Shown in pieces: positions 3,785 through 64,000 of a stretch of 64,000 nucleotides of DNA. Both the position numbers and the translations under genes were made by a program. Every line of letters begins with the position of its first letter. The first letter of the stretch is position 1. Source of the DNA: Pirellulales bacterium (GTDB taxonomy: Bacteria; Planctomycetota; Planctomycetia; Pirellulales; UBA7805). The notes below the pieces were generated by a model. That model was not told the origin of the DNA. It did no database searches and saw only the letters and a list, made by a program, of their open reading frames with translations. The stretch is from NCBI GenBank assembly GCA_029245145.1, contig JAQWPY010000005.1:11990-75989 (forward strand), read 5' to 3'.

Positions 3785-3815
3785 TCGTGGGGCAGCCGTG
3801 CGACCGGTCGCTGGC

Positions 3816-6341: not shown

Positions 6342-6353
6342 ACGCAGCGCCCG

Positions 6354-10873: not shown

Positions 10874-11169
10874 AGCCGTCGTTGCGCGCACGCGGCATTG
10901 CCACAACTTGATCAGGGGTGCGGCTTCAACGGGGTCATCGACCAAATTCCTTGGCTCTCGCTAGGAATAATCGATAAAATCAGAAAAATCGGCACAGATT
11001 GCCTATTTGTTACAAATCACCGAAAAAAGGGCCTCCCACTTCGCGTAAGGTCCTTCATGCATCAGAGGGTCGCCGGGTATGGTGAGTTGTCGCTCCCCGG
11101 CCCTGGGCCTTATGCTGTCGTTACTTGCATTTTCCTCCTCGATTCTCTCTCCCCTTTGAAAGCGTTGCC

Positions 11170-39911: not shown

Positions 39912-39925
39912 CCTGGCATCGCCAA

Positions 39926-41961: not shown

Positions 41962-42033
41962 ACCGCCGCCCGCTTGACGGCGTATCGCGTGGCGTCATTA
42001 TAAGATGCTCACGCGAGCTATGCACTACGCCAG

Positions 42034-43320: not shown

Positions 43321-43337
43321 AATTTACGCAGGGCGGT

Positions 43338-44147: not shown

Positions 44148-44155
44148 CGGCAACC

Positions 44156-44602: not shown

Positions 44603-44678
44603 GGAAAAACCCGGTTCGGTGTTGATCTGTATTGCGCCCGTTATATCACGCACTGTAAACCGACCACAGACCCGAGAC

Positions 44679-45212
44679 TCAGACGGCAGGCGCCAGCTCG
44701 TTTCGTATTAAGTGCCAGAGCCTTCGCAACAGATAGAAAAATGTAACCACCACGACCGCCAAAAAAATGCCTGCCACATTGGCCAGGTAATCGTTCCAGT
44801 CAAAGTGCCTTCCAAAAAAAGGCTGGGTCACCTCATCCAGCCAACCCCAGACTAACAGACCGGTGATCGTCATTCCGCTACCGTTCATCCCGCGACGACT
44901 TTCGGCAGTTGCTCGAAGGTGATGAACGGAGGCGGCCCAAAAGGCGAGCAAACCGAGGACCCCGAAAGCGACCAGATGAAACCACTTATCGGGTCGATCG
45001 AGTCGCAACGAGTGACCGAAGCGGACCAGACCCCACAAGAGTCCGTCCCACCAGTGCATCCGGTCAGCACTTTCGGCGTGGATCAGCGGATTATGCGTCG
45101 CAAAAAAAAGTGCCGTCGCATAGAGAAACAGTACCGCACGACGGACAGGAAAAGACCGATGGTGAGTCGCCCCCTCACTCACCATCGGTCCTGTCGCTCG
45201 GGATTCTGGCAT
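44679..45212 (-). CDS. VanZ-like family membrane protein
   Basis: DKWFHLVAFGVLG and LDEVTQPFFGRHFDWNDYLANVAG match VanZ motifs, with four hydrophobic helices. It overlaps the upstream gene end by 11 to 38 nt depending on the start. Confidence 0.65.
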   Translation of the reverse strand: MPESRATGPMVSEGATHHRSFPVRRAVLFLYATALFFATHNPLIHAESADRMHWWDGLLWGLVRFGHSLRLDRPDKWFHLVAFGVLGLLAFWAASVHHLRATAESRRGMNGSGMTITGLLVWGWLDEVTQPFFGRHFDWNDYLANVAGIFLAVVVVTFFYLLRRLWHLIRNELAPAV

Positions 45213-47472: not shown

Positions 47473-47612
47473 TGTCGTCCAAAACCACGAGAGTATGACT
47501 TCCCCCATTGTATCGCCTCATTCTCACCAGGGGACAACTCGGTAATGCCCCGTTTGACAGGCCAAGGAAGGGGGCGTTAGAGTCAGGTTCGACGGGCTAA
47601 CGGAGCCCGCCA

Positions 47613-47699
47613 GGATGGGTGGCCGAGTGGACTAAGGCGGCAGTCTTGAAAACTGCTGTACGGGCAACCGTACCGGGGGTTCGAATCCCTCCCCATCCG
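47613..47699 (+). tRNA. tRNA-Ser (anticodon UGA), type II with long variable arm
   Basis: Acceptor GGATGGG/CCCATCC, anticodon stem GCAGT/ACTGC with loop CTTGAAA, variable arm GTACGGGCAACCGTAC, and T-arm GGGGG-TTCGAAT-CCCTC. CCA is not encoded. Confidence 0.9.
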
Positions 47700-47726
47700 C
47701 TGAATCAGGTTCGGCTCAAGAAACGA

Positions 47727-49250
47727 CTACAGTTTCTCAATCTCGCCCGGTCGCCATGACTTGTCGAACCACGGTTTGAGTGGCCCGTAAAGCCGAAGGC
47801 AAAGAAACCAGCCTTTGCCCGGCACCGTCTGAATCCAATTTGATTCTTTGCCCGCCGGCGGCTTAGGACCGAAATAGATATCCACTGAACCATCCTCGTT
47901 GACCTGCATCTGATCCCGGCGACTATTGCGACTCGGAAACGGCTGCGCGGTCTGCAGTTCCGAACGGGTCTGCGGATCGTAGACGACGATGGACCAAAAA
48001 TCTTTGGCTGGCACGTCCTTGGGAATATTGAGCTTGTAGCTCTGGCTACCATCGAGGTACGCACCCTCCGTATCGAGTGCATTGAGTGCATACTGTGATC
48101 CGACACCGATCATCTCTTTAACCATCGCCGGAGTGTTCACGGTGGCGATATAGAAAAAGAAGGCACGGGCATCAAGATTGCGCCCGCCCTTGCCGTCGTC
48201 GATCAGCCAACGATAGTCACCCCCATCGAAGGCGGTGTACCAACTGCCCTCATCGTAAATGTAGACCGTGTCCGATCGCGGCTTGAAGCTGAGTGCCCGT
48301 GCGGTGGCATTGCCGACGGCAACCGCCTCGGTGAGAATCTTCTGCATGCGTGCATCCGGCTGAAATGGTTTTCCCTTTTGCATCCCCAGACTGGCAAGCA
48401 AACCACGCAACTCCGGGTCGATAAAATCGATTGGCTCCTTCTGGATCACATTGTTGATTTCTTCGAAGAATTTGTAGTTGTTCGCGTGGATGGTATTGAA
48501 GGGAACCTCGGATGCCTCCATGAATTCCATCTTCGGTGGATTCTCTTTCGCCTTGAGCGGATAAACCTTCAGGCCTTCACGAAAGTTCTTGGAAGCAGCG
48601 TCCGGCTTCCCATCTTTCAGCATGCCGCGGAGGATCAACCAATTCACCGCCGAAGGGGAACTCGCCACAAAATAACCTTCCGGCACATCGCCCTCAAAGC
48701 CTTCTGGGAGGATCAGGTATTTCCCGCCCTTGCCGCGGTCCGGGCCGGGTGCGCCCATATCGGTAACGAACCGGAAAAAAGCATCGTTCACGGTACCCGG
48801 TCCACAACCGGGCGGAATTTCGATCACCGTCGGGCCATCACGCTCAAGGTCCAGGAAGCTCATCGCATAGACCGTGTCGGTATTGCCGGTGAGAAACAGC
48901 GGATTCGAATCGAGCAGTCGATCCATAATCACGACCTGGTTCGGAAGCTTGCTGCCGAGCTGAGCGGCACCCTCTCGCAACGCCTCGAGTGACGCGGCCG
49001 GGATGAACTGTAAAAATGCCTCGGTGCCCCGCAGAAAATCAAGATTGTCATAGATCGTTTCAACGGTCGCGTCATCCGGTAAACCATCGAAAAATTTCAG
49101 CGTGCCGATCCGCGTATCGACCGTCTCGGGCGTCAATACCTCCGCCGGGATGTGCTGGTTGTAGCCAGGTGTTGGCGGCGTTCCGTAAGCGGCAGCGGTA
49201 ACCAGAAACCAAAACAGAGAAGCGAGGATGATCGAACGGGTCCGTTGCAT
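47727..49250 (-). CDS. DUF1254/DUF1214 domain-containing secreted protein
   Basis: Signal peptide (IILASLFWFLVTAAAYG), then sequence typical of the DUF1254 plus DUF1214 two-domain family (GTLKFFDGLPD..., ...WIQTVPGKGWFLCLRLYGP). Confidence 0.7.
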   Translation of the reverse strand: MQRTRSIILASLFWFLVTAAAYGTPPTPGYNQHIPAEVLTPETVDTRIGTLKFFDGLPDDATVETIYDNLDFLRGTEAFLQFIPAASLEALREGAAQLGSKLPNQVVIMDRLLDSNPLFLTGNTDTVYAMSFLDLERDGPTVIEIPPGCGPGTVNDAFFRFVTDMGAPGPDRGKGGKYLILPEGFEGDVPEGYFVASSPSAVNWLILRGMLKDGKPDAASKNFREGLKVYPLKAKENPPKMEFMEASEVPFNTIHANNYKFFEEINNVIQKEPIDFIDPELRGLLASLGMQKGKPFQPDARMQKILTEAVAVGNATARALSFKPRSDTVYIYDEGSWYTAFDGGDYRWLIDDGKGGRNLDARAFFFYIATVNTPAMVKEMIGVGSQYALNALDTEGAYLDGSQSYKLNIPKDVPAKDFWSIVVYDPQTRSELQTAQPFPSRNSRRDQMQVNEDGSVDIYFGPKPPAGKESNWIQTVPGKGWFLCLRLYGPLKPWFDKSWRPGEIEKL

Positions 49251-49387: not shown

Positions 49388-50743
49388 CTAACGGCCTTCT
49401 CCCTGACACTTGCGACAGGCGGCCAGTTTTGCCCGCAATTCGTTTTTTAGCGCCAAGGGCAGCGACTCAGAAAGGTTCTGCTGCTCGTGCGGATCTCGCG
49501 AGAGATCGTAAAATTCTTCGCGCGGTCGATTCTCATAAGCCGCCACGAGCCGCTCCGCAGACCGATCGTCTACAGCGGCCGCGAGCCAACTTTCCCAGTA
49601 GTCGCGGCCGTCACGGGCTACGCCCCGTGAGATGTGCGTCTCATACTTTCTCTCGGGATGCAAATTGAGAATGTATTTGTAGCGATCCGTACGCACCGCA
49701 CGCATGGGCGACCGATTGATCCGGCTGTCTCCTGTATGGGTGGTAAAAATAGCTTCGCGATGCGCGTCGGTTTCACCGGCCAGCAGAGCCGCAAGACTTT
49801 GGCCGTCTATTTCCCCCGGTGGTTTCCCACCCGCAATTTCGATGAAGGTCGGAAGGAGATCGGTCAGACTGACCATGGCTGCGGTCGTTCGGCCCGCCCC
49901 GACGTGCCCCGGCCAACGGACAATCAGAGGGACCCTCGTACCGGCTTCGTACAAATTCCACTTGGAAAATGGCCATTGCGCACCGTGATCGGACGCGTAA
50001 ACGAAGACCAGATTGTCCGAAAATCCATGTCGCTCGAGTGCGGTGAGGCAGCATCCCAAACGAGCATCCAACTGGGTGACGTCACTATAGTATCGCGCGC
50101 GTGCTTTGCGCGATTCGTGCGTATCGACCGAACGCGGGGGTAAGCCGATCTGCGCCGGATCGTAGCCGTCGTTCTCCGGCCAGGGAATGTGCGGGCTCCA
50201 ACTGTTGACGATGAGGCAGAGTGGTACGTTCGGATCGTGTGCCGCAAGCAATTGTTCCAACGCGTCGGTATCAAGCGAACTCCCTTGATCGGGTCCTGCC
50301 GGAGCAATTCGACCTTCAACATATTCGAAAGGGAACGCAGAGCGTGGTGAGACGTGATTTTTTCCAAAGAGAACCGTGCGGTAGCCCAGGGGCCCAAAAT
50401 AGTGCGGGAGCGATCGGGTGCCCTCGCGCACAGACGAGTGGTTAGGATGCGCGCCGTTGCGAGCGGGCATCAGACCGGTAAATAAGGCCGATCGTGAAGG
50501 CGTACAACTTGGCGACGCACAGTAAGCTCGCTCGAATCGCAACCCTTCCTCGGCAAGTCGATCGAGATGGGGTGTCCGTACATCGGGATTGCCGTAGCAA
50601 CCGGCGTCCGCCGCACCGTGATCGTCAGACAGGAAAAGCACCAGATGCGGAAGAGCATTGGTTGATTCTGCAGGGAGTAAACTAGCAACCAACCATATGA
50701 AAACTCCCGCTCCAATACTGACTCCGAAACTTCGTGCTGACAT
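49388..50743 (-). CDS. sulfatase (formylglycine-dependent)
   Basis: Signal peptide, LVLFLSDDHG, and the sulfatase signature SCTPSRSALFTG (C-x-P-x-R). Confidence 0.9.
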   Translation of the reverse strand: MSARSFGVSIGAGVFIWLVASLLPAESTNALPHLVLFLSDDHGAADAGCYGNPDVRTPHLDRLAEEGLRFERAYCASPSCTPSRSALFTGLMPARNGAHPNHSSVREGTRSLPHYFGPLGYRTVLFGKNHVSPRSAFPFEYVEGRIAPAGPDQGSSLDTDALEQLLAAHDPNVPLCLIVNSWSPHIPWPENDGYDPAQIGLPPRSVDTHESRKARARYYSDVTQLDARLGCCLTALERHGFSDNLVFVYASDHGAQWPFSKWNLYEAGTRVPLIVRWPGHVGAGRTTAAMVSLTDLLPTFIEIAGGKPPGEIDGQSLAALLAGETDAHREAIFTTHTGDSRINRSPMRAVRTDRYKYILNLHPERKYETHISRGVARDGRDYWESWLAAAVDDRSAERLVAAYENRPREEFYDLSRDPHEQQNLSESLPLALKNELRAKLAACRKCQGEGR

Positions 50744-50913
50744 ACGATCCGCTCTACCAAAAAAACATTAGATCATCGCAATCTCAAGCTCTTATCATAA
50801 CCGATTCGTAATTCTTCGCTGCACAGCGGCGTGGACCCTCTTCAAGCCAGATGCTACCATGTGGCACTTTCAATTTTTTCTATCGTTTTTGTCCCTCGAA
50901 AAGTTGCCTCGCG

Positions 50914-51711
50914 ATGCGCACGTTACTCATCTGCCACGATCAACATCCGCTCGATCGCGACGGCCTGTCTCGCTGGTTGGCATCTTTTTCGGAACTGGCA
51001 GGGGTGGTAGTGCTTCAGGAACACGCATCGAGAAAACGCAAGCGAATACGTCGCGAGATCCAACGGGTCGGAATTTTGCGGTTCCTCGATGTGATTGCAT
51101 TCCGATTTTACGACCGATTTGTCTGGGGACGAAAAGATCAGCAGTGGGAAGCAGCCAAGTTGGCGGAGTTAAAAGCGGAATATCCCGAGTTGCCCGACGT
51201 TCCTCGACTGATCACCCACAGCCCTAACACCGCAGAGGCCGAGGAGTTTATTCAAGCAGCCAACTGCGACATCATGATCGCCCGTTGCAAAACACTTCTG
51301 GCGGAAAGAATTTTTTCCCTGCCGCGGGCAGCCACGCTCGTGATGCACCCCGGAATTTGCCCCGAATATCGCAACGCTTACGGCTGCTTTTGGGCTCTGG
51401 CGGAGGACGATCTGGAGCGGGTCGGTATGACTCTTCTGAAAGTCGATGCGGGAATCGATACCGGAGGTGTATACGGCTACTACACGTATGACTACGACGA
51501 GGTCAATGAATCGCAAAACATGATCCACAATCGGGTTACTTTTGACAACCTTTTACCGCTTGCCGAAACAATTTCTGAAATCCATGCGGGCACCGCAGAG
51601 TCGATTGACACTTCCTCACGAAAATCTGCCACCTGGGGACAGCCATGGTTGAGCCGCTATTTGCGATGGAAAAAAAATGCCCGTCGGCGACTGCGGGAGC
51701 AATCGCAATGA
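50914..51711 (+). CDS. formyltransferase family protein
   Basis: ATG at 50914 (MRTLLICHD). LVMHPGICPEYRNAYGCFWAL...GMTLLKVDAGIDTGGV parallels the Fmt/PurN/ArnA-type HPS-LP-xRG...D-G-D motifs. Confidence 0.65.
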   Translation: MRTLLICHDQHPLDRDGLSRWLASFSELAGVVVLQEHASRKRKRIRREIQRVGILRFLDVIAFRFYDRFVWGRKDQQWEAAKLAELKAEYPELPDVPRLITHSPNTAEAEEFIQAANCDIMIARCKTLLAERIFSLPRAATLVMHPGICPEYRNAYGCFWALAEDDLERVGMTLLKVDAGIDTGGVYGYYTYDYDEVNESQNMIHNRVTFDNLLPLAETISEIHAGTAESIDTSSRKSATWGQPWLSRYLRWKKNARRRLREQSQ

Positions 51712-52514
51712 AACAGATTACGCTCCTCTACCACGATGTGCTCGAAGAGGGTGCGCATCAGCAAAGCGGCTTCCCCGACCCGGCAGCCGCCCGATATAAA
51801 CTCGGTCGCGCAGCGTTTGTCGAACACTTGCAGGCCATCAATACCGTCTTGCAATCACAACCGATTACAATTGAACAACTACCCCAGGTCACTCAACAAC
51901 CCATCCCCTTCACAATCGGATTTGACGATGGGGGTGTTAGTAGTGCAACCATCATTGCCGAAGAATTGGGGCAATTCGACTGGAAAGGGCATTTTTTTAT
52001 AACGACCGATTGGATCGGCAAGCCTGGCTTCGTTAACGAGAACCAAATTCGCGAGTTGGATGCTGCCGGCCATCGCATCGGCTCACACACCTGCTCGCAT
52101 CCCAACCCGATGTCTCAATGCTCACAGTCACAACTTGTCGGAGAGTGGACACAAAGCATCGCGAGGCTGAGCGACATCCTGGGGCATTCGGTCGAAGTTG
52201 CCTCGATCCCGGGCGGCGCTTACGGAAAAAATGTTGCGCGTGCCGCAGCAACAGCAGGAATCCGCTGGCTCTTCACATCCGAACCGGTTCGTGCAAGTTG
52301 GCAGATCAACGGCTGCACGATGCTTGGCCGATACGGGATCGAATGTGAGGATGCTCCACGCAAGGCAGCCGCTTTTGTAGCCGAGGATTGGACGGTCCTC
52401 ACCAGGGAATGGATGGCCTGGAACGCAAAAAAAACCATTAAACGCGTGGGCGGAACACTCTATTATAAATTGCGCCGCTGGCAACAAAACCTTCGGCACG
52501 ACGACAAACAGTAA
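51708..52514 (+). CDS. polysaccharide deacetylase (carbohydrate esterase 4-like) family protein
   Basis: ATG at 51708 overlaps the upstream stop (ATGA). FTIGFDDG and GSHTCSHP are CE4 NodB-type motifs. Confidence 0.7.
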   Translation: MKQITLLYHDVLEEGAHQQSGFPDPAAARYKLGRAAFVEHLQAINTVLQSQPITIEQLPQVTQQPIPFTIGFDDGGVSSATIIAEELGQFDWKGHFFITTDWIGKPGFVNENQIRELDAAGHRIGSHTCSHPNPMSQCSQSQLVGEWTQSIARLSDILGHSVEVASIPGGAYGKNVARAAATAGIRWLFTSEPVRASWQINGCTMLGRYGIECEDAPRKAAAFVAEDWTVLTREWMAWNAKKTIKRVGGTLYYKLRRWQQNLRHDDKQ

Positions 52515-52521
52515 TTATCGT

Positions 52522-53376
52522 TCAATTGCCAAACTTTTCTCGAAGAAATGCAAAGCCGGTGCTGACAAATGAATCTGCATCGGGGCAGACATTGTGGAAC
52601 ATCCCACGGCGAAAGGCAAAATCATCGATCGACGAATTGTAGCCCTCCAGTAGCACCGGCCCGTTGAAGTCGATCTGGCGGAGGCCGTCGGCAATCCGCG
52701 ACCAGGGAATCAGCCCGCCCCCCGGCACGCCTCGGTCATTCTCGCAAGCGTGTACACCCCAAAGTTTTGATCCCATTGATAAAATCGCCGCCTGATAATC
52801 GCGGACTTCGGTTATCAGATGATACGTGTCAAAGAGCACGCGAAGATTCGGATGATCGCAGCGGTCGAGCAGGGCCACGGCCTGGTCAGGCGTATTGATC
52901 AGATGGGTGCGGAAGTGGCTCATCGGTTCAATTGCCAGAAGCACATTACGCTCGGCTGCAAATTCAGCAAGCTGCTGTAAACCCTCAACCATCCGTTGGT
53001 ATTCGTCATTCGGCGGCAGCCGCTTTTGAACAACGCCCGTGTGTCCATAGAGGGCACCGGTATACGCAATCGCCTCGAGCTCTGCTGCAAGTTCAATCTG
53101 CTGCTGGTGCCAGGCGAGTCCCCGTTGGCGGTCCGCCGGATCGTCGGCCGAGATGTCGCATGGAACTGGCCATTGTCCACCGGGACTCACGATCAATTGC
53201 ATTCTGAGTTTGTTCGCTTCGACCCGCGTATCAGCAATTGAAAAATGCACATCGTCACCGATTGCAATTTCCAGAACTTCCCCGCCGAGAGCACGCAAAC
53301 GCTCTAGGATCGGGAGACTGGCGTCGCTCCAGTGATCGGTGAACAGATAACAGTGTGCGCCAAGTTGAATCTTCAT
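52522..53376 (-). CDS. sugar phosphate isomerase/epimerase (xylose isomerase-like TIM barrel)
   Basis: The likely start is MKIQLGAHCYLF at 53376, 16 nt after the upstream stop. LAIEPMSHF and WGVHACENDRG are family-typical motifs. Confidence 0.75.
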   Translation of the reverse strand: MKIQLGAHCYLFTDHWSDASLPILERLRALGGEVLEIAIGDDVHFSIADTRVEANKLRMQLIVSPGGQWPVPCDISADDPADRQRGLAWHQQQIELAAELEAIAYTGALYGHTGVVQKRLPPNDEYQRMVEGLQQLAEFAAERNVLLAIEPMSHFRTHLINTPDQAVALLDRCDHPNLRVLFDTYHLITEVRDYQAAILSMGSKLWGVHACENDRGVPGGGLIPWSRIADGLRQIDFNGPVLLEGYNSSIDDFAFRRGMFHNVCPDADSFVSTGFAFLREKFGN

Positions 53377-53392
53377 CGCATGCCACCGGGTC

Positions 53393-54817
53393 CTACGCCA
53401 GAATGTCGTGAATAACCCGACCATGGACATCCGTCAAACGGAAATCGCGACCCGCATGACGATAAATCAGTTTCTCGTGGTCCAAACCCAATTGGTGCAG
53501 CACCGTCGCGTGGAGATCGTGCACATCAATCGGATTCTCGACCGCCTTGTACCCAAAATCGTCCGTTGCCCCGTAGGAAATCCCCGCGCGGATTCCGCCT
53601 CCCGCCAAAAGTGCCGAGAAACCGTAAGAGTTGTGGTCGCGTCCCTTGCCGGAGGTGCCATCGTCGTTCATCTGTACGGTGGGCGTGCGACCGAATTCTC
53701 CCGAAACAATGACAAGTGTCTCATCCAAAAGACCACGCTGCTTGAGATCGAGAATTAAGGCCGCAATCGGTCGGTCACACTCCGGAGCGAGGCGGCGAAT
53801 TTTTGGAAAAATATCATTATGGTGATCCCACGGTTGAAATGGACCGTGCCACACCTGAATAAACCTCACGCCACGTTCGGCCAAACGCCGAGCGATGATC
53901 ATTTGTCTCGCTTGATCCGAATCGCCGTACATGCGGTGGATGTGTGCCGGTTCATCCTTCACATCGAAGGCACCGCGGGCGGCAACTTGCATGCGATAGG
54001 CCAATTCATATGAAGCAATCCGTCCTTCGAGCGCATCGTCCTGACCTCGCTGGATCGCATGCTGGCGATTGAGTTGTTGCACCAAATCCAACTGGCGTCT
54101 CTGCTGCTGCGGTCCCGCCAGTTGGCTGCGAACATTTTCAACGAGGCGATCGACACGACGATAAGCCGTGTCGACTAACATTCCCTGATGCACCGATGGC
54201 AAAAATGCGCTCCGCCAGTTGTCGGCACCTTTCACCGGCACGCGTCCTTTCCCCGGACAGAGAACAACAAACGCGGGCAGATTTTCATTCTCTGAGCCAA
54301 GACCATAGCTGAGCCAAGATCCCACACTCGGGGTGAGTTGTGAAAGTGAACCGCAGTTCATCAGCATCAGAGCGGACTCATGAATCGGTGAGGAGGTTGT
54401 CATGGAACGAACCAAACACAACTCATCAACGATCGATCCGATGTGAGGAAACAATTCGCTCACCTCAGTACCACATGCGCCATGGGATCGAAATCGAAAA
54501 GGGGACGCCATGGCATGTCCCGTCATGAAGGGAGTGAAGGGATGCCGATACGGAAGCGGCTTGCCGTGGTTTTTGGTAAGGATGGGCTTGGGATCAAACG
54601 AATCAACTTGAGAGAGTCCCCCATTGAGAAAAACGTGGATGACTCGCTTTGCACGGGGGCGCACCTGCGGTAATGCATCGGCAGGTGCTGCCAAGAGTTG
54701 CTCTTGATGCAGCAAACCTGCAAGGCCGAGCGCACCGAACCCCATGCCACATCGCTTGAGCAGCGTGCGTCTTGAAAGTGGGTGTAGAGCGAGGCTCTCT
54801 CGACTTGGGAGGTTCAT
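53393..54817 (-). CDS. DUF1501 domain-containing protein (sulfatase/alkaline-phosphatase-like, Tat-type signal)
   Basis: SRRTLLKRCGMGFGALGLAGLL N-terminus, HVFLNGGLSQVDSFDPKP, and C-terminal HAGRDFRLTDVHGRVI. The start overlaps the upstream stop by 4 nt. Confidence 0.85.
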   Translation of the reverse strand: MNLPSRESLALHPLSRRTLLKRCGMGFGALGLAGLLHQEQLLAAPADALPQVRPRAKRVIHVFLNGGLSQVDSFDPKPILTKNHGKPLPYRHPFTPFMTGHAMASPFRFRSHGACGTEVSELFPHIGSIVDELCLVRSMTTSSPIHESALMLMNCGSLSQLTPSVGSWLSYGLGSENENLPAFVVLCPGKGRVPVKGADNWRSAFLPSVHQGMLVDTAYRRVDRLVENVRSQLAGPQQQRRQLDLVQQLNRQHAIQRGQDDALEGRIASYELAYRMQVAARGAFDVKDEPAHIHRMYGDSDQARQMIIARRLAERGVRFIQVWHGPFQPWDHHNDIFPKIRRLAPECDRPIAALILDLKQRGLLDETLVIVSGEFGRTPTVQMNDDGTSGKGRDHNSYGFSALLAGGGIRAGISYGATDDFGYKAVENPIDVHDLHATVLHQLGLDHEKLIYRHAGRDFRLTDVHGRVIHDILA

Positions 54818-56229
54818 GTCAAAACCTCCCTGATGACGCGACCGTGCACATCGGTCAGACGAAAATCTCGGCCTGCATGCCGATGGGTGAATCGCTCGTG
54901 GTCGATACCCAGTTGGTGCAAAATGGTTGCATGCAAGTCGTGCACGTGAACCCGATTTTCAATTGCGCGATAGCCAAAGGGATCGGTCTTTCCATAGATC
55001 GATCCCTGACGGAAGCCTCCTCCGGCAAGACAGCAGGTAAACGCATAAGGATTGTGGTCCCTGCCGAGCAACGATTTCCCTTGCGAACTCAACTCCGTCG
55101 TCGGCGTCCTGCCGAATTCACCGCAGAAGAAGACGATCGTCTCGTCGAGCAAACCTCGCTGGTCGAGGTCGGCAATCAAGGCACCGATTCCGCGATCACA
55201 TTCTTTTGCGCGAAATCGATGTTCTTTTTCGAGTTTGCTATGATTGTCCCAAGGCTGATTTTGTCCGTGCCAACACTGTACGAACCGCACACCTCGTTCG
55301 ACGAGTCGCCGGGCAATCAGCAACTGCCTCCCCTGGGCAGAATCGCCGTACATTTTCTGGATGTATTCGGGCTCACGGTGGATATCAAAAGCATCACTGG
55401 CCGCAGCCTGCATCCGATAGGCGAGTTCGTAAGATTCAATCCGTGCGTCGAGTGCATCGTCTTCTCCAGTCCGCTGACGATGGGCCATATTCAGTTTTTG
55501 CAACAAGTCGAGTTGAAGCCGTTGCTGGGTGAGGCCAATTTTTTGGTTGCGTACATCCGCGACAAGTCGCTCGACTTCGGTATTAATGGTATCGACGAGT
55601 GTCCCTTGGTAGACCGAGGGCAGAAACGCACTCCGCCAATTATTTGGCCCGGCAATCGGCAGCCCCCCAGGACAAAGAACTACAAAGCCGGGCAAACTTC
55701 GATTTTCCGTACCCAGGCCATAGGTAACCCAGGACCCCATCGCCGGAGTCGTCTGCGTTAAAGTCCCACTGTTCATCATCATCAGCGAGGGAGTATGCGT
55801 CACCGAGTCGGTATGCATCGAGCGAATCAAGCACATCTTGTCAACGACTTGACCGATGTGAGGGAAAAGTTCGCTTACCTCAATCCCGCTTTCACCGTAA
55901 GGCTTGAACTTGAAGGGCGAAGCAAAAGCACCGCCAGTCATATTTTCCGTCTCGGGACTTCTCCCGGGAAGTGGCTTTCCGTGGTATTGCTTCAGAAGCG
56001 GCTTGGGATCGAAAGAGTCCATCTGCGACAGACCGCCGTTGAAGAAAATGTGAATCACATGCTTGGCCTGCGGAGCGTGATGAGGCAAGTCACGCTTTTC
56101 CGGGTCCGCAGATACCTCTCCCTCCAACAGGCTCCCCAACCCGAGAGCACCGAACCCCAAACCGGCACGCTGCAACCATTGACGGCGATCGAGTGGAGAA
56201 GGATTCATCGAGTCATCCAGTGGTGCCAC
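54814..56229 (-). CDS. DUF1501 domain-containing protein (tandem paralogue)
   Basis: DRRQWLQRAGLGFGALGLGSLL, HIFFNGGLSQMDSFDPKP, and HAGRDFRLTDVHGRVI. It is collinear with its neighbour along the full length. Confidence 0.85.
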   Translation of the reverse strand: MAPLDDSMNPSPLDRRQWLQRAGLGFGALGLGSLLEGEVSADPEKRDLPHHAPQAKHVIHIFFNGGLSQMDSFDPKPLLKQYHGKPLPGRSPETENMTGGAFASPFKFKPYGESGIEVSELFPHIGQVVDKMCLIRSMHTDSVTHTPSLMMMNSGTLTQTTPAMGSWVTYGLGTENRSLPGFVVLCPGGLPIAGPNNWRSAFLPSVYQGTLVDTINTEVERLVADVRNQKIGLTQQRLQLDLLQKLNMAHRQRTGEDDALDARIESYELAYRMQAAASDAFDIHREPEYIQKMYGDSAQGRQLLIARRLVERGVRFVQCWHGQNQPWDNHSKLEKEHRFRAKECDRGIGALIADLDQRGLLDETIVFFCGEFGRTPTTELSSQGKSLLGRDHNPYAFTCCLAGGGFRQGSIYGKTDPFGYRAIENRVHVHDLHATILHQLGIDHERFTHRHAGRDFRLTDVHGRVIREVLT

Positions 56230-59200
56230 TTAGTCCACAAACATAAATTCGTTCGAAATGAGCAACGCGTGCGCGTACTGCTCCCACGGAGTTTGCAACC
56301 CCGTCCAACGGGGCACCGAGGCAGAGAAAGCCGCCTCGCTCGGCCATGAGTTGAGTCCGTTGAGTTCACCATTTTCCATGACCGACACCTTCCAAACTTC
56401 AATCGGCCAGGTGTAGTCATCGAACCGACTGTGTTCGTTTGCCGAAATGACGAAATCAATTTGCTCACCCTTTTCGACCTCAATTTTTTCAATGCGTATT
56501 CTCTCTTCTTTTTCCTTGGCTCGATAACGCCCCAGTTCACCTTGTCGCGAAGAGACAATGCGAATCGAGATACCATCTCCCCGAACCGCTTCCGGCATTA
56601 AATTGACACGGCCCTTAAAAAGATAGAGCCCTTCTTCAGGTGCCGTAAATCGGCGAACGACCGCATGGTCGTCGCTGGGGCAGCCACCCTTTGCACTCAG
56701 GTACGGCGGGCCCGTAATCTTTTCTTCTTCCCGCCATTTTTTTCCGTCGAAATACTCAAAAGGCCTGAAAACCAATTCTCCCGAATCCGAATCAATCTTC
56801 CCGGTCCCATACTCCCACGCCATCTGCTTCCCATCCACCGCCAGGCTCTGCGGCGCATCGGCCAAAGGTACGCTGAGGAAAGCTTCGGCGAGCGATTGTT
56901 CATATTCGCTCGGCTGACGACCGTAAACCCAATCGTAAAGCTGTTCGACACGACCGGCGAAGCTCTGCGGTGCGATTGATTCAGCGAAAACTCGGTCGAG
57001 TCGTGCAATGAGTTGCCGGGCGCGATCAGCCAGAAATCGGTTGTTCATCAGGTAGAGAGCTTGTTGAGGCACGGTCGTCTTGTTTCGCATCGGCAAGGTA
57101 GCGTCAGGAACACTCACATCGAAAGTCGCTAGAACCCCCGGCATTTGCTGACGATTGACCAGAAGGTAAATACTCCTTCGTCCGCTGCCGAAGTCTTCCG
57201 TAGGCAACCCGCCCACATCCGTATTCAGTTCACCCGATACCGCCAGCAGTGCGTCGCGCATTGCCTCGAACTCGAGGCGACGACGATTCATCCGCCAATA
57301 AAAATGATTGTTCGGATCGACCGCGCGTTTCCCTGCATCGTCTGCACTCGCCTGTTGGTAGGTTGCCGAATGCGTGATCAGACGGTGCAGCGCCTTGAGC
57401 GACCAATTATGTTCTATGAGGTAAGCGGCCAAATAATCGAGTAATTCTCGCTGAACCGGTTCGGAGGACCTGACACCAAAATCGCTGGGAGTTGCAACCA
57501 AACCTTCACCAAAATGCCAGTGCCAAATGCGGTTGGCAATCACGCGGGCCGTGAGAGGATTGTGAGGGCTCGCAATCGCTTCTGCCAACTGCAACCGACC
57601 ACTGCCTTCCATGTAGGGCTCACCGGAATCGACCGCTTCGAAGGGTGCGCCGGAGAGCAGTTGGAGAAATCTCCGAGACGTGGTCGACCCCTTTCTCCGC
57701 CAATCCCCACGAATGTGGATTGCGGCATCCCTGGGAAGATCCCTGTCGACAAGCGTCATCGCGCGGGCCGGCACGGTATCAATGAATTGCACCAGCGTAT
57801 TCTGTGCCTCTTGCTGGAGAGACCTGAGATTATTTTTCTCGCTGATGTGATAGAGATTATATGCCTGTTCATCATTATCGACGACCGCGGGAGACCCGTC
57901 GCCGTAAAGTACTAATCGCAACTGCTCGTCCACTTGATTTTCAAATCCCTCGTCGCCCGGGTCGACCTCCAACACTTTTTGCCACTCGGCATGCACCGCT
58001 TCGAGTACTTCCCCGTATACCTGTGCTGCGTCGATCATGGTCGACGGGGCCGCCTGCTCCAGCGCCGTACGCAGACGCGGATTCGTTTGATCCGCAGACG
58101 CGATCAACTCACCGGCCTCTGCAGAAAAAGCGACCGGGTCGAGTCGGGCAAGTCGATGCCAAAGACCGAATATCGGGTCGTTTTCGCGAGCAGAAATATA
58201 CCGCGTCCAGAGAACCACACCTCCATCGGCAACAAGATTGTGTCGCCGCAACAAGGTGCGCTCTGTTTTGTAGTTGAGGTCTGTTTTTGTGCGGTGTGCA
58301 GGCATCGTTTCGTGGACCACGAACTCAAGATAATCACCAACGTACGATCGCATTTCCTGGCGAATTTTCTGCCTTAAACCGACACGCTGTTCATGGTATT
58401 TGGTGATCCGCTTATCAAAAACGTTTTTGAAATTTGCATACTGCGTATCTTCTATGGGGGGTTCTTCGGTCAGCAGGGGTTTCTGATCGTAAGAAGGCTC
58501 TATCGAACTATCGAAAATTCCATACAGCGCGTAATAGTCGTCCATACCAATCGGATCAAATTTGTGATCGTGGCAGCGGGCGCACATGAGTGTCAGCCCT
58601 TGAAATCCACGCATGGTGACGTCAATCTGATCCCCTACGATCCGATGGCGCTTATGGATAAAGCGATTACCCAGGGTCAAAAAACCCATTGCTGCCAGCT
58701 TCCACTGCTCTTCCTCTTCGAGGTCGAGAAGATCAGCGGCAAGTTGATGGCGAATGAAATCGTCAAAAGGCACATCTTCATTTAGCGCACGTACGACGTA
58801 GTCGCGATACGTCCAACCATACGCATATCGCTCTTCCCGTTTTCCGACGCCGATGTATCCTTTTGTATCTGCGTAGCGGGCCACATCTAACCAGTGCCGC
58901 GCCCATCTCTGGCCGTATTCGGGTCGATCAAGCAGGTGATCGACAAAGCTGCCCCAGTCGATTTCGCCGTCGCTGTCAAAAAAACGATCTCGTTCCTCAG
59001 CAGTAGGCGGCAACCCGAGCATGTCAAAGCTGGCGCGACGCAGCAACTGTCGGGAGGAAGCACGCGGTGATGGGCTCAACCCGTTGGCTTCCTGTTGGGC
59101 AAGAATAAAACAATCTATCCCGTTGTTGGGCCATGCCGTGTTTTGCACCTTAGGGATTTCAGGCTGCCTGATCGGTTGCAGCGCCCAATGTGAATTTTGG

Positions 59201-59781
59201 ATTTCATCAATCCTCTCAATGGGAGACGCTCCCCCCTGTTCCTCCGGATCGACCGGCCAAGGAGCACCCATTTCAATCCATTGCCTTACCAAGGCAAGTG
59301 CCTCGGGGGGTAGAGGGTCGTCGGGCGGCATTTGCAAATCCTCGTTCTTGTAGCTTATCGCTTCAAAAAGGAGACCCTCTTCATCCGTTTCATTTGAAAG
59401 AACGGGGCCCGAGTCGCTGCCTGCAAAAAAGGCTTCTCGGCGATCCAAACGCAAACCACTTTCCTGCTTTTCAGCGCCGTGACATTCCGTGCAATAGGTA
59501 TGAAATATGGGGCGGATATGCTGCTCGAAAAAATCGGTCTCTTCCGAGGTCGCAGCCCACATTGCGGACGGACCGGTTGCGGCAAACAGCAGCACAGAGG
59601 CACTGGCCCGAATCGAGAGCGGACGAGCCAGTGAGGGTACCACGGTGAGAAATTTAGCAACCGAAAAAAGAATCAACATCATCCACCGGCCGAGAATTCC
59701 GGCAGTTGCGGGGGATGCAGTGCAAGTTGTACCCCTGAACTGAATCCCTGTTGGAGGGGGGGTTAGACGGTTCGGCCGCAA
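56230..59781 (-). CDS. PSCyt (planctomycete cytochrome c) / DUF1549 / DUF1553 (PSD1) multidomain protein
   Basis: FFEQHIRPIFHTYCTECHGAEKQESGLRLD (PSCyt-type CxxCH), a central CARCHDHKFDPI motif, and a C-terminal LLISNEFMFVD. The true start may be MMLILFS near 59682. Its stop directly abuts the DUF1501 start. Confidence 0.85.
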   Translation of the reverse strand: MRPNRLTPPPTGIQFRGTTCTASPATAGILGRWMMLILFSVAKFLTVVPSLARPLSIRASASVLLFAATGPSAMWAATSEETDFFEQHIRPIFHTYCTECHGAEKQESGLRLDRREAFFAGSDSGPVLSNETDEEGLLFEAISYKNEDLQMPPDDPLPPEALALVRQWIEMGAPWPVDPEEQGGASPIERIDEIQNSHWALQPIRQPEIPKVQNTAWPNNGIDCFILAQQEANGLSPSPRASSRQLLRRASFDMLGLPPTAEERDRFFDSDGEIDWGSFVDHLLDRPEYGQRWARHWLDVARYADTKGYIGVGKREERYAYGWTYRDYVVRALNEDVPFDDFIRHQLAADLLDLEEEEQWKLAAMGFLTLGNRFIHKRHRIVGDQIDVTMRGFQGLTLMCARCHDHKFDPIGMDDYYALYGIFDSSIEPSYDQKPLLTEEPPIEDTQYANFKNVFDKRITKYHEQRVGLRQKIRQEMRSYVGDYLEFVVHETMPAHRTKTDLNYKTERTLLRRHNLVADGGVVLWTRYISARENDPIFGLWHRLARLDPVAFSAEAGELIASADQTNPRLRTALEQAAPSTMIDAAQVYGEVLEAVHAEWQKVLEVDPGDEGFENQVDEQLRLVLYGDGSPAVVDNDEQAYNLYHISEKNNLRSLQQEAQNTLVQFIDTVPARAMTLVDRDLPRDAAIHIRGDWRRKGSTTSRRFLQLLSGAPFEAVDSGEPYMEGSGRLQLAEAIASPHNPLTARVIANRIWHWHFGEGLVATPSDFGVRSSEPVQRELLDYLAAYLIEHNWSLKALHRLITHSATYQQASADDAGKRAVDPNNHFYWRMNRRRLEFEAMRDALLAVSGELNTDVGGLPTEDFGSGRRSIYLLVNRQQMPGVLATFDVSVPDATLPMRNKTTVPQQALYLMNNRFLADRARQLIARLDRVFAESIAPQSFAGRVEQLYDWVYGRQPSEYEQSLAEAFLSVPLADAPQSLAVDGKQMAWEYGTGKIDSDSGELVFRPFEYFDGKKWREEEKITGPPYLSAKGGCPSDDHAVVRRFTAPEEGLYLFKGRVNLMPEAVRGDGISIRIVSSRQGELGRYRAKEKEERIRIEKIEVEKGEQIDFVISANEHSRFDDYTWPIEVWKVSVMENGELNGLNSWPSEAAFSASVPRWTGLQTPWEQYAHALLISNEFMFVD

Positions 59782-60012
59782 CCGCTTGTGTCGTTACTCA
59801 ATATAATCGGTTTGGCTCCTCCGGTCAACGAAAGGCTTAAGGTAAAAAGAGCGAGCAAAATGCATATTGCGACTCGTTCGATTTCTTTCCGTCATTTGGG
59901 AATTGATCCATTGCCGAGGACGATTACAATTCGGTCTTCGCACCTGCCTGACACCGAAATGTGATGGTCGTCCTTATCGTCTCTCCGCGACCCTCGCTAG
60001 GCTCCAGAATTT

Positions 60013-63000
60013 ATGCCCGCCTCCGATCTACAAATAAAAGGTGCCCGCGAACATAACCTTCGCTCCGTCAATGTCACACTTCCGCGCAACCATTTAATCT
60101 GCCTGACTGGTGTGAGTGGGAGCGGCAAAAGTTCCCTCGCGTTCGATACCGTATTTGCGGAGGGGCAGCGAAGGTACGTCGAAAGTCTCTCGAGCTTTGC
60201 ACGACAATTTCTGGGGCAAATGCCAAAACCGGACGTTGACTCCATCGAGGGACTGAGTCCCACAATCTCAATCTCACAAAAAACGTCGGGCCGCAACCCT
60301 CGGTCAACTGTCGGAACCATTACCGAAATTTACGATTTTCTGCGCGTACTCTATGCGAGGGTAGGGCAGGGGCACTGCCCGCAGTGCGGCCTGCCAGTGA
60401 CCGCGCAAACGCGTGAGCAGATCATCGCGCAGATCATCGGCCTGAGCGACGGGACACCGATCGCCGTCCTGGCACCATTGATTCGAGGCCAGAAGGGAGA
60501 ATTCCGCGATCTGTTCACCGATCTTCTCAAACAGGGATTTTCGCGAGCACGTATCGATGGCCGGATCGCAAGCCTCAGCGAAGATCAGAGTCTCGATCGG
60601 CAAATGCGCCACAATATTGAAGTGGTGGTCGATCGCTTGAAAATCAATCGTCGCAATCGCACACGACTCGCCGAGGCGGTCGAACTTGCGCTTTCCGTCG
60701 GCAAAGGAAACTTGATTGTCGCAATCGACCCGACGACCGATGGCAAAGCCGCGGAAAGTTCGAAGCCAAAGCAGCAACTGACGGGAGGTGAGTTGCAACT
60801 TTCATCTGAGTTCGCATGCACTCACTGCCAGGTCAGCTTCGCACCTCTCTCGCCACAGCTGTTTAGTTTTAACAGTCCCCAAGGCATGTGCGAGACATGC
60901 GATGGTTTGGGTGAATTTTTTAGCTTCGATCCAATCCTGCTCGTTCCACGGCCCGATCGCTCTGTCCAACAGGGTGCCATCGAACTGCTCGGCAAACTCA
61001 AAGCGATGGGGCGATGGAACCGGCACATTTACAAAGGTGTTGCCGAAACTGTCGAGCGTCTGCACGATCTACCACCCGGCACGATGCTCGAAACGGCCTG
61101 GGAAGAACTCGGTGAGGAACTTCAAAATCTCTGGCTCTGGGGAACGGGCGTTGAACATATCACCTACACCTGGCGCGGTGGCCAGCGCGGAATGAAGCAC
61201 GGGGGCACTTTTGAGGGGATCATCCCGGAATTACTTTCAAAATACCGCAACAGCCGGAGTACTCCCCAAATCCGCAAATTGGAAAAATACATGAACACCA
61301 TTCGTTGTCCCGACTGTGAAGGACAGCGATTAAATCCGCAATCGCGGGCGGTGCGAATTGCATCGGGAGATCCCTACTTTGCGGAACAGCCCTCGCGAAC
61401 GCTTCCCGAATTGTGCGACTTGCCGGTCGCCGATGCGGGGCGATTTTTCAGCAAGCTGCTCTTGACCGAAACACAACAGACCATTGCGGAAGAGCTGACC
61501 AAAGAAATCCGTGGGCGGTTAGGGTTTTTAGAAAACGTAGGGCTCGAATATCTGAGCCTCAATCGTACCGCACCGACCCTTTCGGGTGGTGAATCACAGC
61601 GCATTCGTCTCGCTGGTCAAATTGGATGTGGACTTGTTGGTGTCCTTTACATCCTCGATGAGCCCTCGATCGGCTTGCACACGAGAGACAACCAACGATT
61701 GCTCGATACGCTGCAAAGTCTACGCGACTTGGGGAACACGGTTGTCGTTGTCGAGCACGATGAAGATACAATGCGCGCCGCAGATCGGGTGATCGACTTC
61801 GGCCCCGGTCCCGGAGTGCGGGGAGGAGAAGTCGTTGCCGAAGGCGACTGGAAGGAGATCGCGAAAGAAAAGCGAAGCGTTACGGGACAATATCTTGCGG
61901 GCACCGAGGAAATAGAAATCCCTTCCAAGCGGCGGCTGAGCGAAGAAAAAAAACTCCGCATCCTCGGGGCAACACATAACAACCTGAAAAACATTGACGT
62001 CGAAATTCCGTTGGGGATGTTGGTTTGTGTGACCGGCGTTTCCGGCTCGGGGAAAAGTTCACTGGTAAGTGACATCCTGGTCGAATCACTTCGCCGGGAT
62101 TTAAATTTGGGCAAAGGCGAACCGGGGGCACACGCTGCGATCGAGGGCCTTGCCCACCTTGATAAGCTGATCGCTATCGATCAATCACCTATCGGCCGGA
62201 CACCTCGATCCAATCCGGCAACCTACATTAAAGTTTTCGACGAGATCCGAAAACTCTACTCGCAACTTCCCGATGCGAAACGCTGTGGTTACTCTGCAGG
62301 CCGCTTCAGCTTTAATGTTCGGGGAGGTCGTTGCGAGGCATGCGAAGGGTGTGGCGCGAATAAATTGGAGATGGATTTTCTCGCGGCCATCTGGGTACCG
62401 TGCCCGATCTGTGGTGCACGACGATTCAATCGGGAAACTTTAGAGATTCGCTACAAGGGAAAATCTATTGCCGATGTATTGGAGATGGATATCCAGCAAG
62501 CGCTCGAACACTTTGAAAACATCCCCAAAATCCACGACAAGCTACAAACGCTGCACGACGTGGGGCTCGATTACATCAAACTGGGACAGCCCTCGCCCAC
62601 GCTTTCCGGGGGTGAGGCACAGCGGATCAAGCTTGCCCGCGAGTTGGTGAAACGGAGCACTGGAAAGACACTCTACCTGCTCGATGAGCCGACGACGGGG
62701 CTGCACTTTGCCGACATCAAAATGCTGCTTTCGGTACTCAATAATTTTGTCGAGGCAGGCAACACTGTTTTGGTGGTCGAGCACAATTTAGATGTCATCA
62801 AGACGGCCGACTGGGTCATTGACCTGGGACCCGAGGGGGGCGCAGCAGGCGGGCACATCGTCGCCACCGGAACGCCCGAACAAATCGCTAGTCATGCCAA
62901 ATCCTACACCGGTCGTTCACTGAAGCACTTTTTCTCGCAGGGAGACGCTTCGACATCAGCCAAACCTCCACCAAAAAAACAGCGGGAGCCCACTCGCGAA

Positions 63001-64000
63001 ATCGTGGTACGGGGTGCCAGGCAGCACAACCTCAAGGATGTCGACGTAAAAATCCCTCGCGACGCAATGACGGTCTGTTGTGGAGTGAGCGGCAGTGGCA
63101 AGACGTCACTAGCCATGGATACGATTTATGCGGAAGGTCAGCGAAGATACGTCGAGAGCCTCAGCAGCTACGCTCGACAGTTCGTCGCGCAAATGCAAAA
63201 ACCGCTGGTCGAACAGATTGAGGGACTCTCTCCCTCGGTCGCGATCGAACAGCGGCACATGGGGCACACGCCGCGATCGACCGTGGGAACCGTAACTGAA
63301 ATCTACGACTATCTACGGATTCTTATTGCTCGTATCGGCACGCCACACTGCCCCGAGTGCGACTCTGAGATCGGTACACAAACCGTAGATGAAATTATCG
63401 AACGAATATTTGCGCATCCGAGCGGAACCCAACTCTACCTGCTTGCTCCCCTGACTGTTTCATCCGGAGATAAGTACGAGTCGCTCTGGGATCAGGTACG
63501 TGGGCGAGGCTACGTAAGAGTGCGAATTGATGGAAAAACATATTCGGTCGATAGCACACCTGAAATTGATCGCCGCCGGAAGCACGACGTGGAAGTGGTG
63601 GTCGATCGCGTGAAAATCGATAAAAAGTCGCGCGGTCGCATCGCCGAGAGTGTCGAGGCGGCCCTCGGACTGGGCGAGGGCACGATGCGCGTGGCAATCG
63701 TCGACTCGCAGCGGGAAGAGACGGCGTGGAAAGTCGAAGTTCATAGCCAACACTTCGCCTGCGATCAATGCGGACTCAGCTTTGAACCGCTCGGACCGCA
63801 CCATTTTTCCTTCAATAGTCCTCTCGGCTGGTGCGAATCGTGCGAGGGACTGGGAACTGAAACCGGAACCAATCTTTCGGCGCTCTTGCGCGACAGTAAA
63901 CTCTCGCTCCGGGAGGGCGCGGTTGCCATTTGGCCCTCTGTCGACCAGCAGATTTCTCAGTGGATGCTGGACGCAATGTCCGAACAGTTGCGGGTACCGG
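60013..64000 (+). CDS. uvrA: tandem-duplicated UvrA (two UvrA units in one reading frame; 3' partial)
   Basis: ATG at 60013 ([16 protein letters not shown]...[35 protein letters not shown]). My spot translations of several segments found no stop, and the track lists no ORF in this frame, consistent with it staying open to base 64000. Hand translation of 62881..63180 shows the end of unit 1, a linker, then a second UvrA N-terminus ([11 protein letters not shown]...[34 protein letters not shown]). Confidence 0.9.

Follow-up and report, generated by a model that had tools for sequence, protein, structure and literature searches.

A lineage-specific elaboration of the PSCyt-PSD1/DUF1501 module, neighboured by an S1-type sulfatase, in a clade of marine planctomycetes

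The stretch of DNA analysed here (64,000 nucleotides (nt) from a Pirellulales bacterium, contig JAQWPY010000005.1; called the window below, to which all positions refer) contains four closely packed genes on its minus strand: a gene for a large protein with PSCyt1, PSCyt2 (DUF1549) and PSD1 (DUF1553) domains (PSCyt-PSD1), two consecutive genes for DUF1501 proteins (DUF1501-A and DUF1501-B), and a gene for a xylose-isomerase-like TIM barrel. The cluster represents a version of a known module, the PSCyt-PSD1/DUF1501 pair, that is specific to its lineage, and it occurs in one uncultured marine clade. An earlier interpretation made from the letters alone (the sequence-only reading) had described the same four-gene unit with the same domains, and both the open reading frames (ORFs) and Pfam bear this out. 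The first gene matches PSCyt1 (E-value 5.9e-15), PSCyt2/DUF1549 (3.2e-67) and PSD1/DUF1553 (3.5e-78), all above the Pfam cut-offs, the second and third match DUF1501 (7.9e-145 and 7.3e-146), and the fourth matches AP_endonuc_2, the xylose-isomerase-like TIM barrel (2.3e-34). The unit and the promoter-like site ahead of it are laid out as follows.

59800..59828, minus strand: promoter-like site TTGACC-17-TATATT (10/12), in the 330 nt that separate the operon from a divergent UvrA-like gene
56230..59682, minus strand: PSCyt1/PSCyt2(DUF1549)/PSD1(DUF1553) gene, 1150 amino acids (aa); longest-ORF limits 56230..59781
54814..56208, minus strand: DUF1501-A, 464 aa from the ATG at 56208, or 471 aa if started from the GTG at 56229
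53393..54817, minus strand: DUF1501-B, 474 aa; its start overlaps the DUF1501-A stop (ATGA)
52522..53376, minus strand: predicted ketose-3-epimerase-like TIM-barrel gene, 284 aa; longest-ORF limits 52522..53430

Two of the three junctions are exactly as had been described. DUF1501-A and DUF1501-B share the four nucleotides ATGA at 54814..54817, with a Shine-Dalgarno-like GGGAGG upstream, and a gap of 16 nt separates the DUF1501-B stop (53393) from the ATG of the TIM gene at 53376. What is conserved in this spacer is its length and not its sequence: it is 16-17 nt long in the window and in each of the six orthologous loci extending this far. The third junction needs a correction. That the DUF1553 stop abuts the first DUF1501 start at 56229/56230 (a gap of 0 nt) is true only for the GTG of the longest ORF. 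The orthologues of DUF1501-A begin at an ATG located 21-45 nt past the PSD1 stop, and since the ATG at 56208 is its counterpart in the window, a gap of 21 nt is likelier than one of 0 nt and the abutting GTG is probably not used. Similarly, the TTG at 59781 is an unlikely start for the PSCyt gene; the ATG at 59682 or the GTG at 59643 is favoured because either fits the length of the signal region in homologues as well as the position of the promoter-like site at 59828..59800.

The promoter-like site itself is only suggestive, because the number of such sites in the region does not exceed shuffle expectation. Indeed, the promoter and terminator scans yielded 7 and 10 sites versus 4.9 and 10.3 in shuffled sequence, i.e. 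no excess, so that these scans cannot define the transcript ends. The promoter scan revealed no promoter-like site ahead of the TIM gene (again with counts no higher than in shuffled sequence), which agrees with the earlier proposal that this gene belongs to the unit. Rfam identified neither a riboswitch nor any other RNA in the operon leader, and its sole match in the window is a tRNA. Judged by strand and spacing, the four genes form a tight unit that is probably co-transcribed.

A divergent UvrA-like gene followed by PSCyt-PSD1, DUF1501-A, DUF1501-B and TIM is also the order in six contigs of related marine planctomycetes that extend to the TIM gene: L001, L002, L006 (TMED10), L007 (UBA7805), L008 and L012 (DS_MAG18). 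In L091, which is 95-98% identical to the window, PSCyt-PSD1 and both DUF1501 genes are present, after which the contig ends. In L001 and L002 the cluster continues on the same strand into genes for a sulfatase and a DUF1254/DUF1214 protein (the gap between TIM and sulfatase is 17 nt in L002). Because these two loci run uninterrupted from TIM into sulfatase and DUF1254/DUF1214, the ancestral cluster, as reconstructed by comparison of the loci, comprised six genes: PSCyt-PSD1, DUF1501-A, DUF1501-B, TIM, sulfatase and DUF1254/DUF1214. Five of the six encoded proteins carry a Tat (twin-arginine translocation) motif or a signal peptide, and only the TIM protein has neither. The last two ancestral genes and the flanking features are present in the window as follows.

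60010..64000, plus strand: giant UvrA-like gene, divergent from the operon and running off the window; upstream boundary of the cluster, syntenic in relatives
51645..52514, plus strand: polysaccharide-deacetylase family gene; opposite-strand insertion, outside the operon
50851..51711, plus strand: formyltransferase-like gene overlapping the deacetylase gene; opposite-strand insertion, outside the operon
49388..50743, minus strand: S1-type formylglycine sulfatase with a signal peptide and DDHG, CTPSR and SDHG motifs
47727..49250, minus strand: DUF1254/DUF1214 protein with a signal peptide, related to the uncharacterised VPA0735; last gene of the ancestral cluster
47613..47700, plus strand: tRNA-Ser(TGA), directly after the DUF1254/DUF1214 gene on the opposite strand; downstream end of the cluster

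The nearest solved relatives of the sulfatase are S1_8A and SGSH. Its gene accompanies PSCyt-PSD1 and the two DUF1501 genes in all relatives whose contigs are long enough to show it, L090 among them. This locus, a sister to L001, reads UvrA (divergent), PSCyt-PSD1, DUF1501-A, DUF1501-B, sulfatase, cytochrome-TPR and VanZ, and then passes directly to LysRS; it lacks TIM and DUF1254/DUF1214 (the latter being syntenic in L001, L002 and L006) together with a whole island of sugar-catabolic genes (FucU, a second TIM barrel, UxaE, aldo-keto reductase, zinc alcohol dehydrogenase (Zn-ADH) and Amidohydro_2). Because L090 keeps PSCyt-PSD1, both DUF1501 genes and the sulfatase gene without TIM, these four appear to constitute the persistent core. 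The sulfatase link that had been proposed from proximity is thus strengthened: the gene is contiguous with the cluster in L001 and L002, is retained in L090, and has non-orthologous SGSH-type counterparts upstream of the nearest outgroup pairs (see below). The same reading had pointed to a nearby DUF1254/DUF1214 protein and a deacetylase. All three neighbours are indeed present, but the deacetylase does not belong to the cluster. The formyltransferase-like/deacetylase pair occurs in the window and in L006 and is absent in L001, L002 and L090, and is a later insertion between TIM and sulfatase; as an opposite-strand insertion restricted to the window and L006, the deacetylase provides no evidence for glycan breakdown. 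Its stop codon and that of the TIM gene are convergent and 7 nt apart, leaving no room for a terminator. The pairing of the two inserted genes (50851..52514) resembles that of ArnA-formyltransferase and ArnD.

Both DUF1501 proteins are predicted to be exported. They carry twin-arginine motifs (DRRQWLQ in DUF1501-A and SRRTLLK in DUF1501-B), and R16 of DUF1501 is invariant in 40 homologues. The two proteins are 61% identical to each other and 57-60% identical to DUF1501 proteins of other phyla; the orthologues of DUF1501-A share 74-98% identity. Separate A and B orthologue groups are present in all related loci, and in a neighbour-joining tree the B group and the grouping of DUF1501-A with P0127 each have a bootstrap value of 100%, with A and B as sisters at 68%. 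These relations indicate an old duplication inside this lineage. A recent tandem duplication was rejected, the A and B groups being well supported and deeply separated. The possibility that DUF1501-B is a decayed copy was rejected as well, as it retains, like DUF1501-A, approximately 157 of the 167 positions whose conservation among other DUF1501 proteins is 90% or higher.

The fold of these proteins was approached both by profile and by model. Searched as a single sequence, DUF1501-B has no relative among the PDB chains at E-values up to 10. The DUF1501 profile gave 16 weak hits in the PDB (E 0.04-2.2), all 16 of them members of the alkaline-phosphatase superfamily and all aligned at one motif, in which 'LVIVgGEFGRT' of DUF1501 is matched to 'IVFIFGDHGRA' of a sulfatase and to 'GDH' of LtaS. 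Likewise, the best Foldseek matches of the DUF1501-B structure model (predicted local distance difference test (pLDDT) 76.8, predicted template-modelling score (pTM) 0.80) are sulfatases, a sulfamidase and LtaS, all weak (E 1e-6 to 1e-4, template-modelling (TM) score 0.3-0.4). Profile and model together point to a divergent alkaline-phosphatase-superfamily fold with a remodelled active site for DUF1501, and at superfamily level the predicted assignment probably holds.

It might be argued from these top fold matches, and from the presence of an S1 sulfatase in the same cluster, that the two DUF1501 proteins act as sulfatases or phosphatases in their own right, redundantly with the S1 enzyme, and that PSCyt-PSD1 is a mere scaffold. 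However, a motif check found the C/SxPxR formylglycine motif in neither paralogue, the 'GDHG' of sulfatases and LtaS aligns to an invariant 'GEFG', so that EF takes the place of the DH metal dyad throughout the family, and the first strand ends in NGG instead of the DD of sulfatases. Because of these three features DUF1501 is, to judge from its motifs, not a formylglycine sulfatase. Moreover, an alignment by hhalign of the DUF1501 profile with the sulfatase of the window covered a 32-column motif only, with the same GDHG/GEFG pairing, at a probability below 1%, and the failure of the single-sequence search mentioned above points in the same direction. Sulfatase activity of DUF1501 itself is disfavoured by the motif tests, and we regard this explanation as very improbable. 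The 'sulfatase-fold' label given to DUF1501 earlier therefore applies, if anywhere, at the level of the superfamily and not to the formylglycine motif or the metal dyad. The family has around 100 invariant positions across 40 sequences, among them H61, D72, D75, H146, C187, H324, D331, H333, E374, R377, D394 and H395. The invariant His, Asp, Cys and Arg residues suggest a metal site other than the canonical one. The fold further contains a long helical insertion at residues ~236-314.

The PSCyt-PSD1 protein has a predicted N-terminal signal peptide of the Sec type and two CxxCH motifs (C64-x-x-C67-H68 and C367-A-R-C370-H371-D-H-K) that are invariant in 35 homologues, as is the M118-P-P that goes with the C64/C67/H68 motif. 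A sequence search against the PDB chains returned no relative at E-values up to 10, and NCBIfam has no model for PSCyt-PSD1, DUF1501 or DUF1254/DUF1214. In the AlphaFold2 model (pLDDT 81.5, pTM 0.77), which has low confidence in the regions of the haem motifs, a long alpha-helical body is followed by a beta-sandwich (residues 956-1114) and by helices at the C-terminus. With the whole model as query, Foldseek found nothing in the PDB at E <= 1e-3, the helical body having no match at all. The beta-sandwich gave weak matches (E 0.006-0.03) to PA14 sugar-binding domains, to carbohydrate-binding modules (CBM61/4/35/36 and a porphyran-binding CBM) and to TNF/C1q jelly-rolls, and its modelled fold thus resembles lectin-like modules only loosely. 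A Pfam search at E <= 1 with the last 203 residues, sandwich included, yielded no family. The sandwich module (residues 948-1125, window 56308..56841, minus strand) is matched by 533 representative proteins at E <= 1e-3, a PDZ protein and giant DUF1581/DUF1583/Laminin_G_3/HEAT proteins among them. Since its position in these proteins varies, it would represent a mobile and undescribed domain of the Planctomycetes-Verrucomicrobia-Chlamydiae (PVC) group that lacks a Pfam model.

The haem motifs bring up a different view of the module, proposed by Kamneva et al. (PMC3542564), in which a dihaem PSCyt-PSD1 exchanges electrons with the Tat-exported DUF1501 proteins or matures them oxidatively, so that the role would be one in electron transport or oxidation and not in hydrolysis. 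The invariance of both CxxCH motifs and of the M-P-P, the Tat signals on DUF1501 and the presence of a nearby, syntenic gene for an octahaem cytochrome-TPR protein are all in favour of such a redox machine. On the other hand, the predicted fold of DUF1501 is that of the alkaline-phosphatase superfamily, neither Pfam nor NCBIfam detects a redox-cofactor domain in DUF1501, and the PSCyt-PSD1 model has low confidence at the haem motifs. The known members of the alkaline-phosphatase superfamily are hydrolases, transferases or mutases. We consider the redox machine unlikely.

The association of PSCyt-PSD1 with DUF1501 is recurrent. Kamneva et al. 2012 (PMC3542564) reported the pair as a conserved module without an assigned function, and PSCyt genes have been discussed in a carbohydrate/sulfatase context in Verrucomicrobia by He et al. 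2017 (PMC5615132), a context echoed by a 2022 preprint (10.1101/2022.05.18.492586). In R. baltica there are 41 copies of each PSD1/PSCyt2 domain (PMC2754498). In the searchable literature we found no paper that assigns a function to DUF1501 or PSCyt/PSD1, and none on DUF1501 together with DUF1553. The recurrence of the pair, to which the sequence-only reading had pointed, was also evident in a survey of 31 unrelated DUF1501 loci from metagenomes with adequate flanks, where an adjacent same-strand PSCyt/PSD1 gene is found at 25 of the 31. The additional genes proved as unusual as had been supposed: no tandem DUF1501 (0/31), a single TIM-like gene (1/31) and no sulfatase (0/31). The flanks of 29 of these loci provided 129 neighbouring ORFs (those over ~900 aa being left out), which fall into 171 Pfam families; no family recurs in over 4 ORFs, and carbohydrate-specific ones are absent. 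Because the survey shows neither a tandem DUF1501 nor recurrent neighbours, the generic pair seems to be a stand-alone two-gene unit to which the extra genes were added specifically in this clade. PSCyt-PSD1 proteins are more variable (~40% identity) than DUF1501 proteins (57-61%).

The nearest outgroup PSCyt-PSD1 proteins, from four loci, are 42-47% identical and each has a single DUF1501 partner. Two of the loci have a non-orthologous sulfatase-TPR gene of the SGSH type directly upstream, and in one of the four a different AP_endonuc_2 gene is divergently placed. A further locus of relevance is L077, from the unrelated planctomycete Planctomycetales HKST-UBA24, in which a tight same-strand run of five genes (2356..10858, plus strand) encodes a PSCyt-PSD1 protein (35% identical), a DUF1501 protein (~43%), a right-handed beta-helix/GH141-like protein, a PfkB sugar kinase and a member of the TIM family (58%). 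By its gene content, L077 appears to be an independent joining of the PSCyt/DUF1501 pair, the TIM family and carbohydrate enzymes. This apparent operon may be a better functional handle than the cluster in the window.

The TIM protein has no signal peptide and is predicted to be cytoplasmic. Among solved structures it is closest to ketose 3-epimerases (2HK0, E 7e-29), with a 3-keto-D-glucoside 4-epimerase as a more distant relative. The residues E150, D183, H209 and E244 align with the metal/catalytic tetrad of 2HK0, and all four are invariant in 21 homologues. With 122.7 bits the protein stays far below the 300-bit equivalog cut-off of the D-psicose 3-epimerase model NF051856 of NCBIfam; it can be annotated as ketose-3-epimerase-like on the basis of these similarities. 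The family to which it belongs (seen at 52522..53376, minus strand, and in loci L009-L085) is unnamed and has neither an equivalog model nor a stable neighbourhood. It is unusually conserved for AP_endonuc_2, with 55-64% identity across Planctomycetota, Chloroflexota, Bacteroidota, Ignavibacteriota and others. A context shared by the Chloroflexota members was sought, and the neighbours were found to vary (PALP, 2-hydroxyacid dehydrogenase, aminotransferase, DUF1015, zinc-ribbon), none occurring in more than 11 loci.

These properties of the TIM family lead to the main rival of a joint function for the cluster, namely that the adjacency is simply inherited. The PSCyt-PSD1/DUF1501(A,B) set would then be self-contained and have a generic periplasmic role, and the TIM protein, perhaps with DUF1254/DUF1214, would serve the nearby cytoplasmic sugar catabolism from within the same transcription unit without sharing a substrate. 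The simultaneous loss in L090 of TIM, DUF1254/DUF1214 and the catabolism island, with retention of PSCyt-PSD1, both DUF1501 genes and the sulfatase gene, speaks for this explanation, which is equally in line with the strong conservation of the TIM family across phyla amid usually unrelated neighbours, with the lack of recurrent neighbours at generic pairs and with the synteny of the entire region within the clade. It does not easily account for the spacing of 16-17 nt between DUF1501-B and TIM that is held in the window and in six diverged orthologous loci, for the lack of a promoter-like site ahead of the TIM gene, or for the independent PSCyt/DUF1501, PfkB and TIM operon of L077. We take inherited adjacency to be a serious possibility, if not one that we would expect to prove correct.

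The interpretation that we tentatively prefer, without giving it an even chance, is that the cluster is a lineage-specific elaboration of the PSCyt-PSD1/DUF1501 module whose products act as a periplasmic complex on an anionic or sulfated sugar. In such a complex PSCyt-PSD1 would be the substrate-recognition and haem subunit, and DUF1501-A and DUF1501-B, possibly as a heterodimer, would be the conserved metal-dependent catalytic subunits. Its substrate, on which the S1 sulfatase would act as well, would be a sugar or oligosaccharide that is anionic and probably sulfated, and the released sugar would be imported, epimerised by the cytoplasmic TIM enzyme and passed on to the nearby sugar-catabolic genes. 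The conserved junction spacing, the gene order in six loci, the sulfatase link, L077 and the export signals are consistent with this proposal. So are the domain identities, the lack of a promoter-like site ahead of the TIM gene, the fold and profile matches of DUF1501, its higher conservation compared with PSCyt-PSD1, the weak sugar-binding jelly-roll matches of the beta-sandwich and the conserved tetrad of the TIM protein. Several observations weigh against it. All relatives with this order belong to a single shallow clade whose members also retain over 20 kb of flanking synteny, and the conserved order alone therefore says little on functional coupling. Of 80 genome loci of the TIM family, 74 lack a nearby DUF1501 or PSCyt gene, and the TIM gene is dispensable, being absent in L090. 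The neighbours of generic pairs, as described above, are not carbohydrate-specific. Finally, the fold matches are weak, with TM scores of 0.3-0.4 for DUF1501 and E-values of ~0.01 for the beta-sandwich of PSCyt-PSD1. Recurrence in other genomes, a point on which the sequence-only reading placed weight, thus holds for the order in six relatives, but these belong to one clade only and TIM is usually unlinked elsewhere. The same can be said of the proposed role in processing complex, possibly sulfated, carbohydrate: the sulfatase link is in its favour, the deacetylase, the TIM gene and the neighbours of generic pairs weaken its support, and it remains plausible. What the analysis establishes is how the cluster is built, which export signals its proteins are predicted to carry, that the duplication is old, and the ancestral six-gene arrangement with its later insertions and deletions; the sulfated-carbohydrate role is what we infer, not a result.

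A much broader generalization can be envisaged, in which PSCyt-PSD1/DUF1501 pairs would be a PVC-wide modular periplasmic machine that combines a near-constant catalytic subunit, the DUF1501 metalloenzyme of alkaline-phosphatase fold, with an interchangeable, haem-bearing PSCyt-PSD1 specificity subunit carrying lectin-like modules. The operon described here would then reveal the substrate class, sulfated or anionic glycans, and the machine would be a functional counterpart of polysaccharide-utilisation loci in bacteria without SusCD. We think it improbable that this generalization holds as a whole.

Several other features of the window deserve mention. The giant UvrA-like gene has duplicated UvrA interaction and DNA-binding domains and encodes at least 1330 aa in the window, the versions of relatives being 2325-2327 aa long; a second UvrA-like paralogue of 955 aa is located at 17557..20424 (minus strand). 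The octahaem cytochrome-TPR protein (777 aa; 45175..47508, minus strand) combines eight CxxCH motifs with C-terminal TPR repeats, and its gene is syntenic in all relatives extending that far, L090 included. The sugar/sugar-acid catabolism island (39018..44653) encodes an RbsD/FucU mutarotase, a second AP_endonuc_2 TIM barrel, a UxaE tagaturonate-epimerase-like protein, an aldo-keto reductase, a Zn-ADH and an Amidohydro_2 protein. Three ORFs have no Pfam match at E <= 1e-5: 9266..10945 (minus strand, 559 aa), 11125..13323 (plus strand, 732 aa) and 16618..17556 (minus strand, 312 aa).

Few uncharacterised families of Planctomycetes and Verrucomicrobia are as large as those of the DUF1501 and PSCyt/PSD1 proteins, and a pair that is fixed beside enzymes of recognisable chemistry shortens the list of substrates worth testing. 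The interpretation from which we started is essentially a speculation of the existing literature applied to a new locus. The clue has nevertheless been sharpened: the persistent partner is the S1 sulfatase and not the TIM barrel or the deacetylase, and DUF1501 should be treated as a remodelled enzyme of the alkaline-phosphatase superfamily and not as a sulfatase. The gain is modest, as the cluster is limited to one clade, generic pairs lack such a context and no mechanism is given.

A comparison with characterised systems places the components as follows. The TIM protein is like the D-psicose 3-epimerase of Agrobacterium (2HK0), the D-tagatose 3-epimerases and YcjR (6WN6) in that it is a cytoplasmic member of the AP_endonuc_2 family with a Glu-Asp-His-Glu tetrad; unlike the ketose 3-epimerases, which it matches distantly (best E 7e-29), it belongs to a very conserved family of its own. 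The DUF1501 model finds its best fold matches in sulfamidase (4MIV), steroid sulfatase (1P49) and LtaS (2W5Q), and shares with the alkaline-phosphatase-superfamily enzymes a motif of a helix, a beta-strand and then G-[DE]-x-G. It differs in the missing C/SxPxR, in having EF for DH and NGG for DD, and in the helical insertion. The PSCyt-PSD1/DUF1501 pair can be compared with periplasmic enzymes in which a Tat-exported catalytic subunit is paired with a Sec-exported c-type cytochrome subunit, such as the sulfite dehydrogenase SorAB. The likeness consists of a Tat signal on one partner, a Sec signal and CxxCH on the other, and genes that lie side by side. In contrast to the SorAB type, the Tat partner here has a predicted hydrolase/transferase-type fold with no recognisable redox cofactor domain, and the cytochrome-like partner exceeds 1100 aa and consists mostly of a helical body without a match among solved structures. 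The closest relation is with the known PSCyt/PSD1 and DUF1501 module of Planctomycetes, Verrucomicrobia and Lentisphaerae (PMC3542564, PMC5615132), with which the cluster shares the architecture of the large protein, the adjacent same-strand twin-arginine DUF1501 and the CxxCH motifs. Compared to that module, the large protein has a beta-sandwich without a Pfam model between PSD1 and the C-terminal helices, and the cluster adds a tandem DUF1501, a TIM gene and, ancestrally downstream, the S1 sulfatase and DUF1254/DUF1214.

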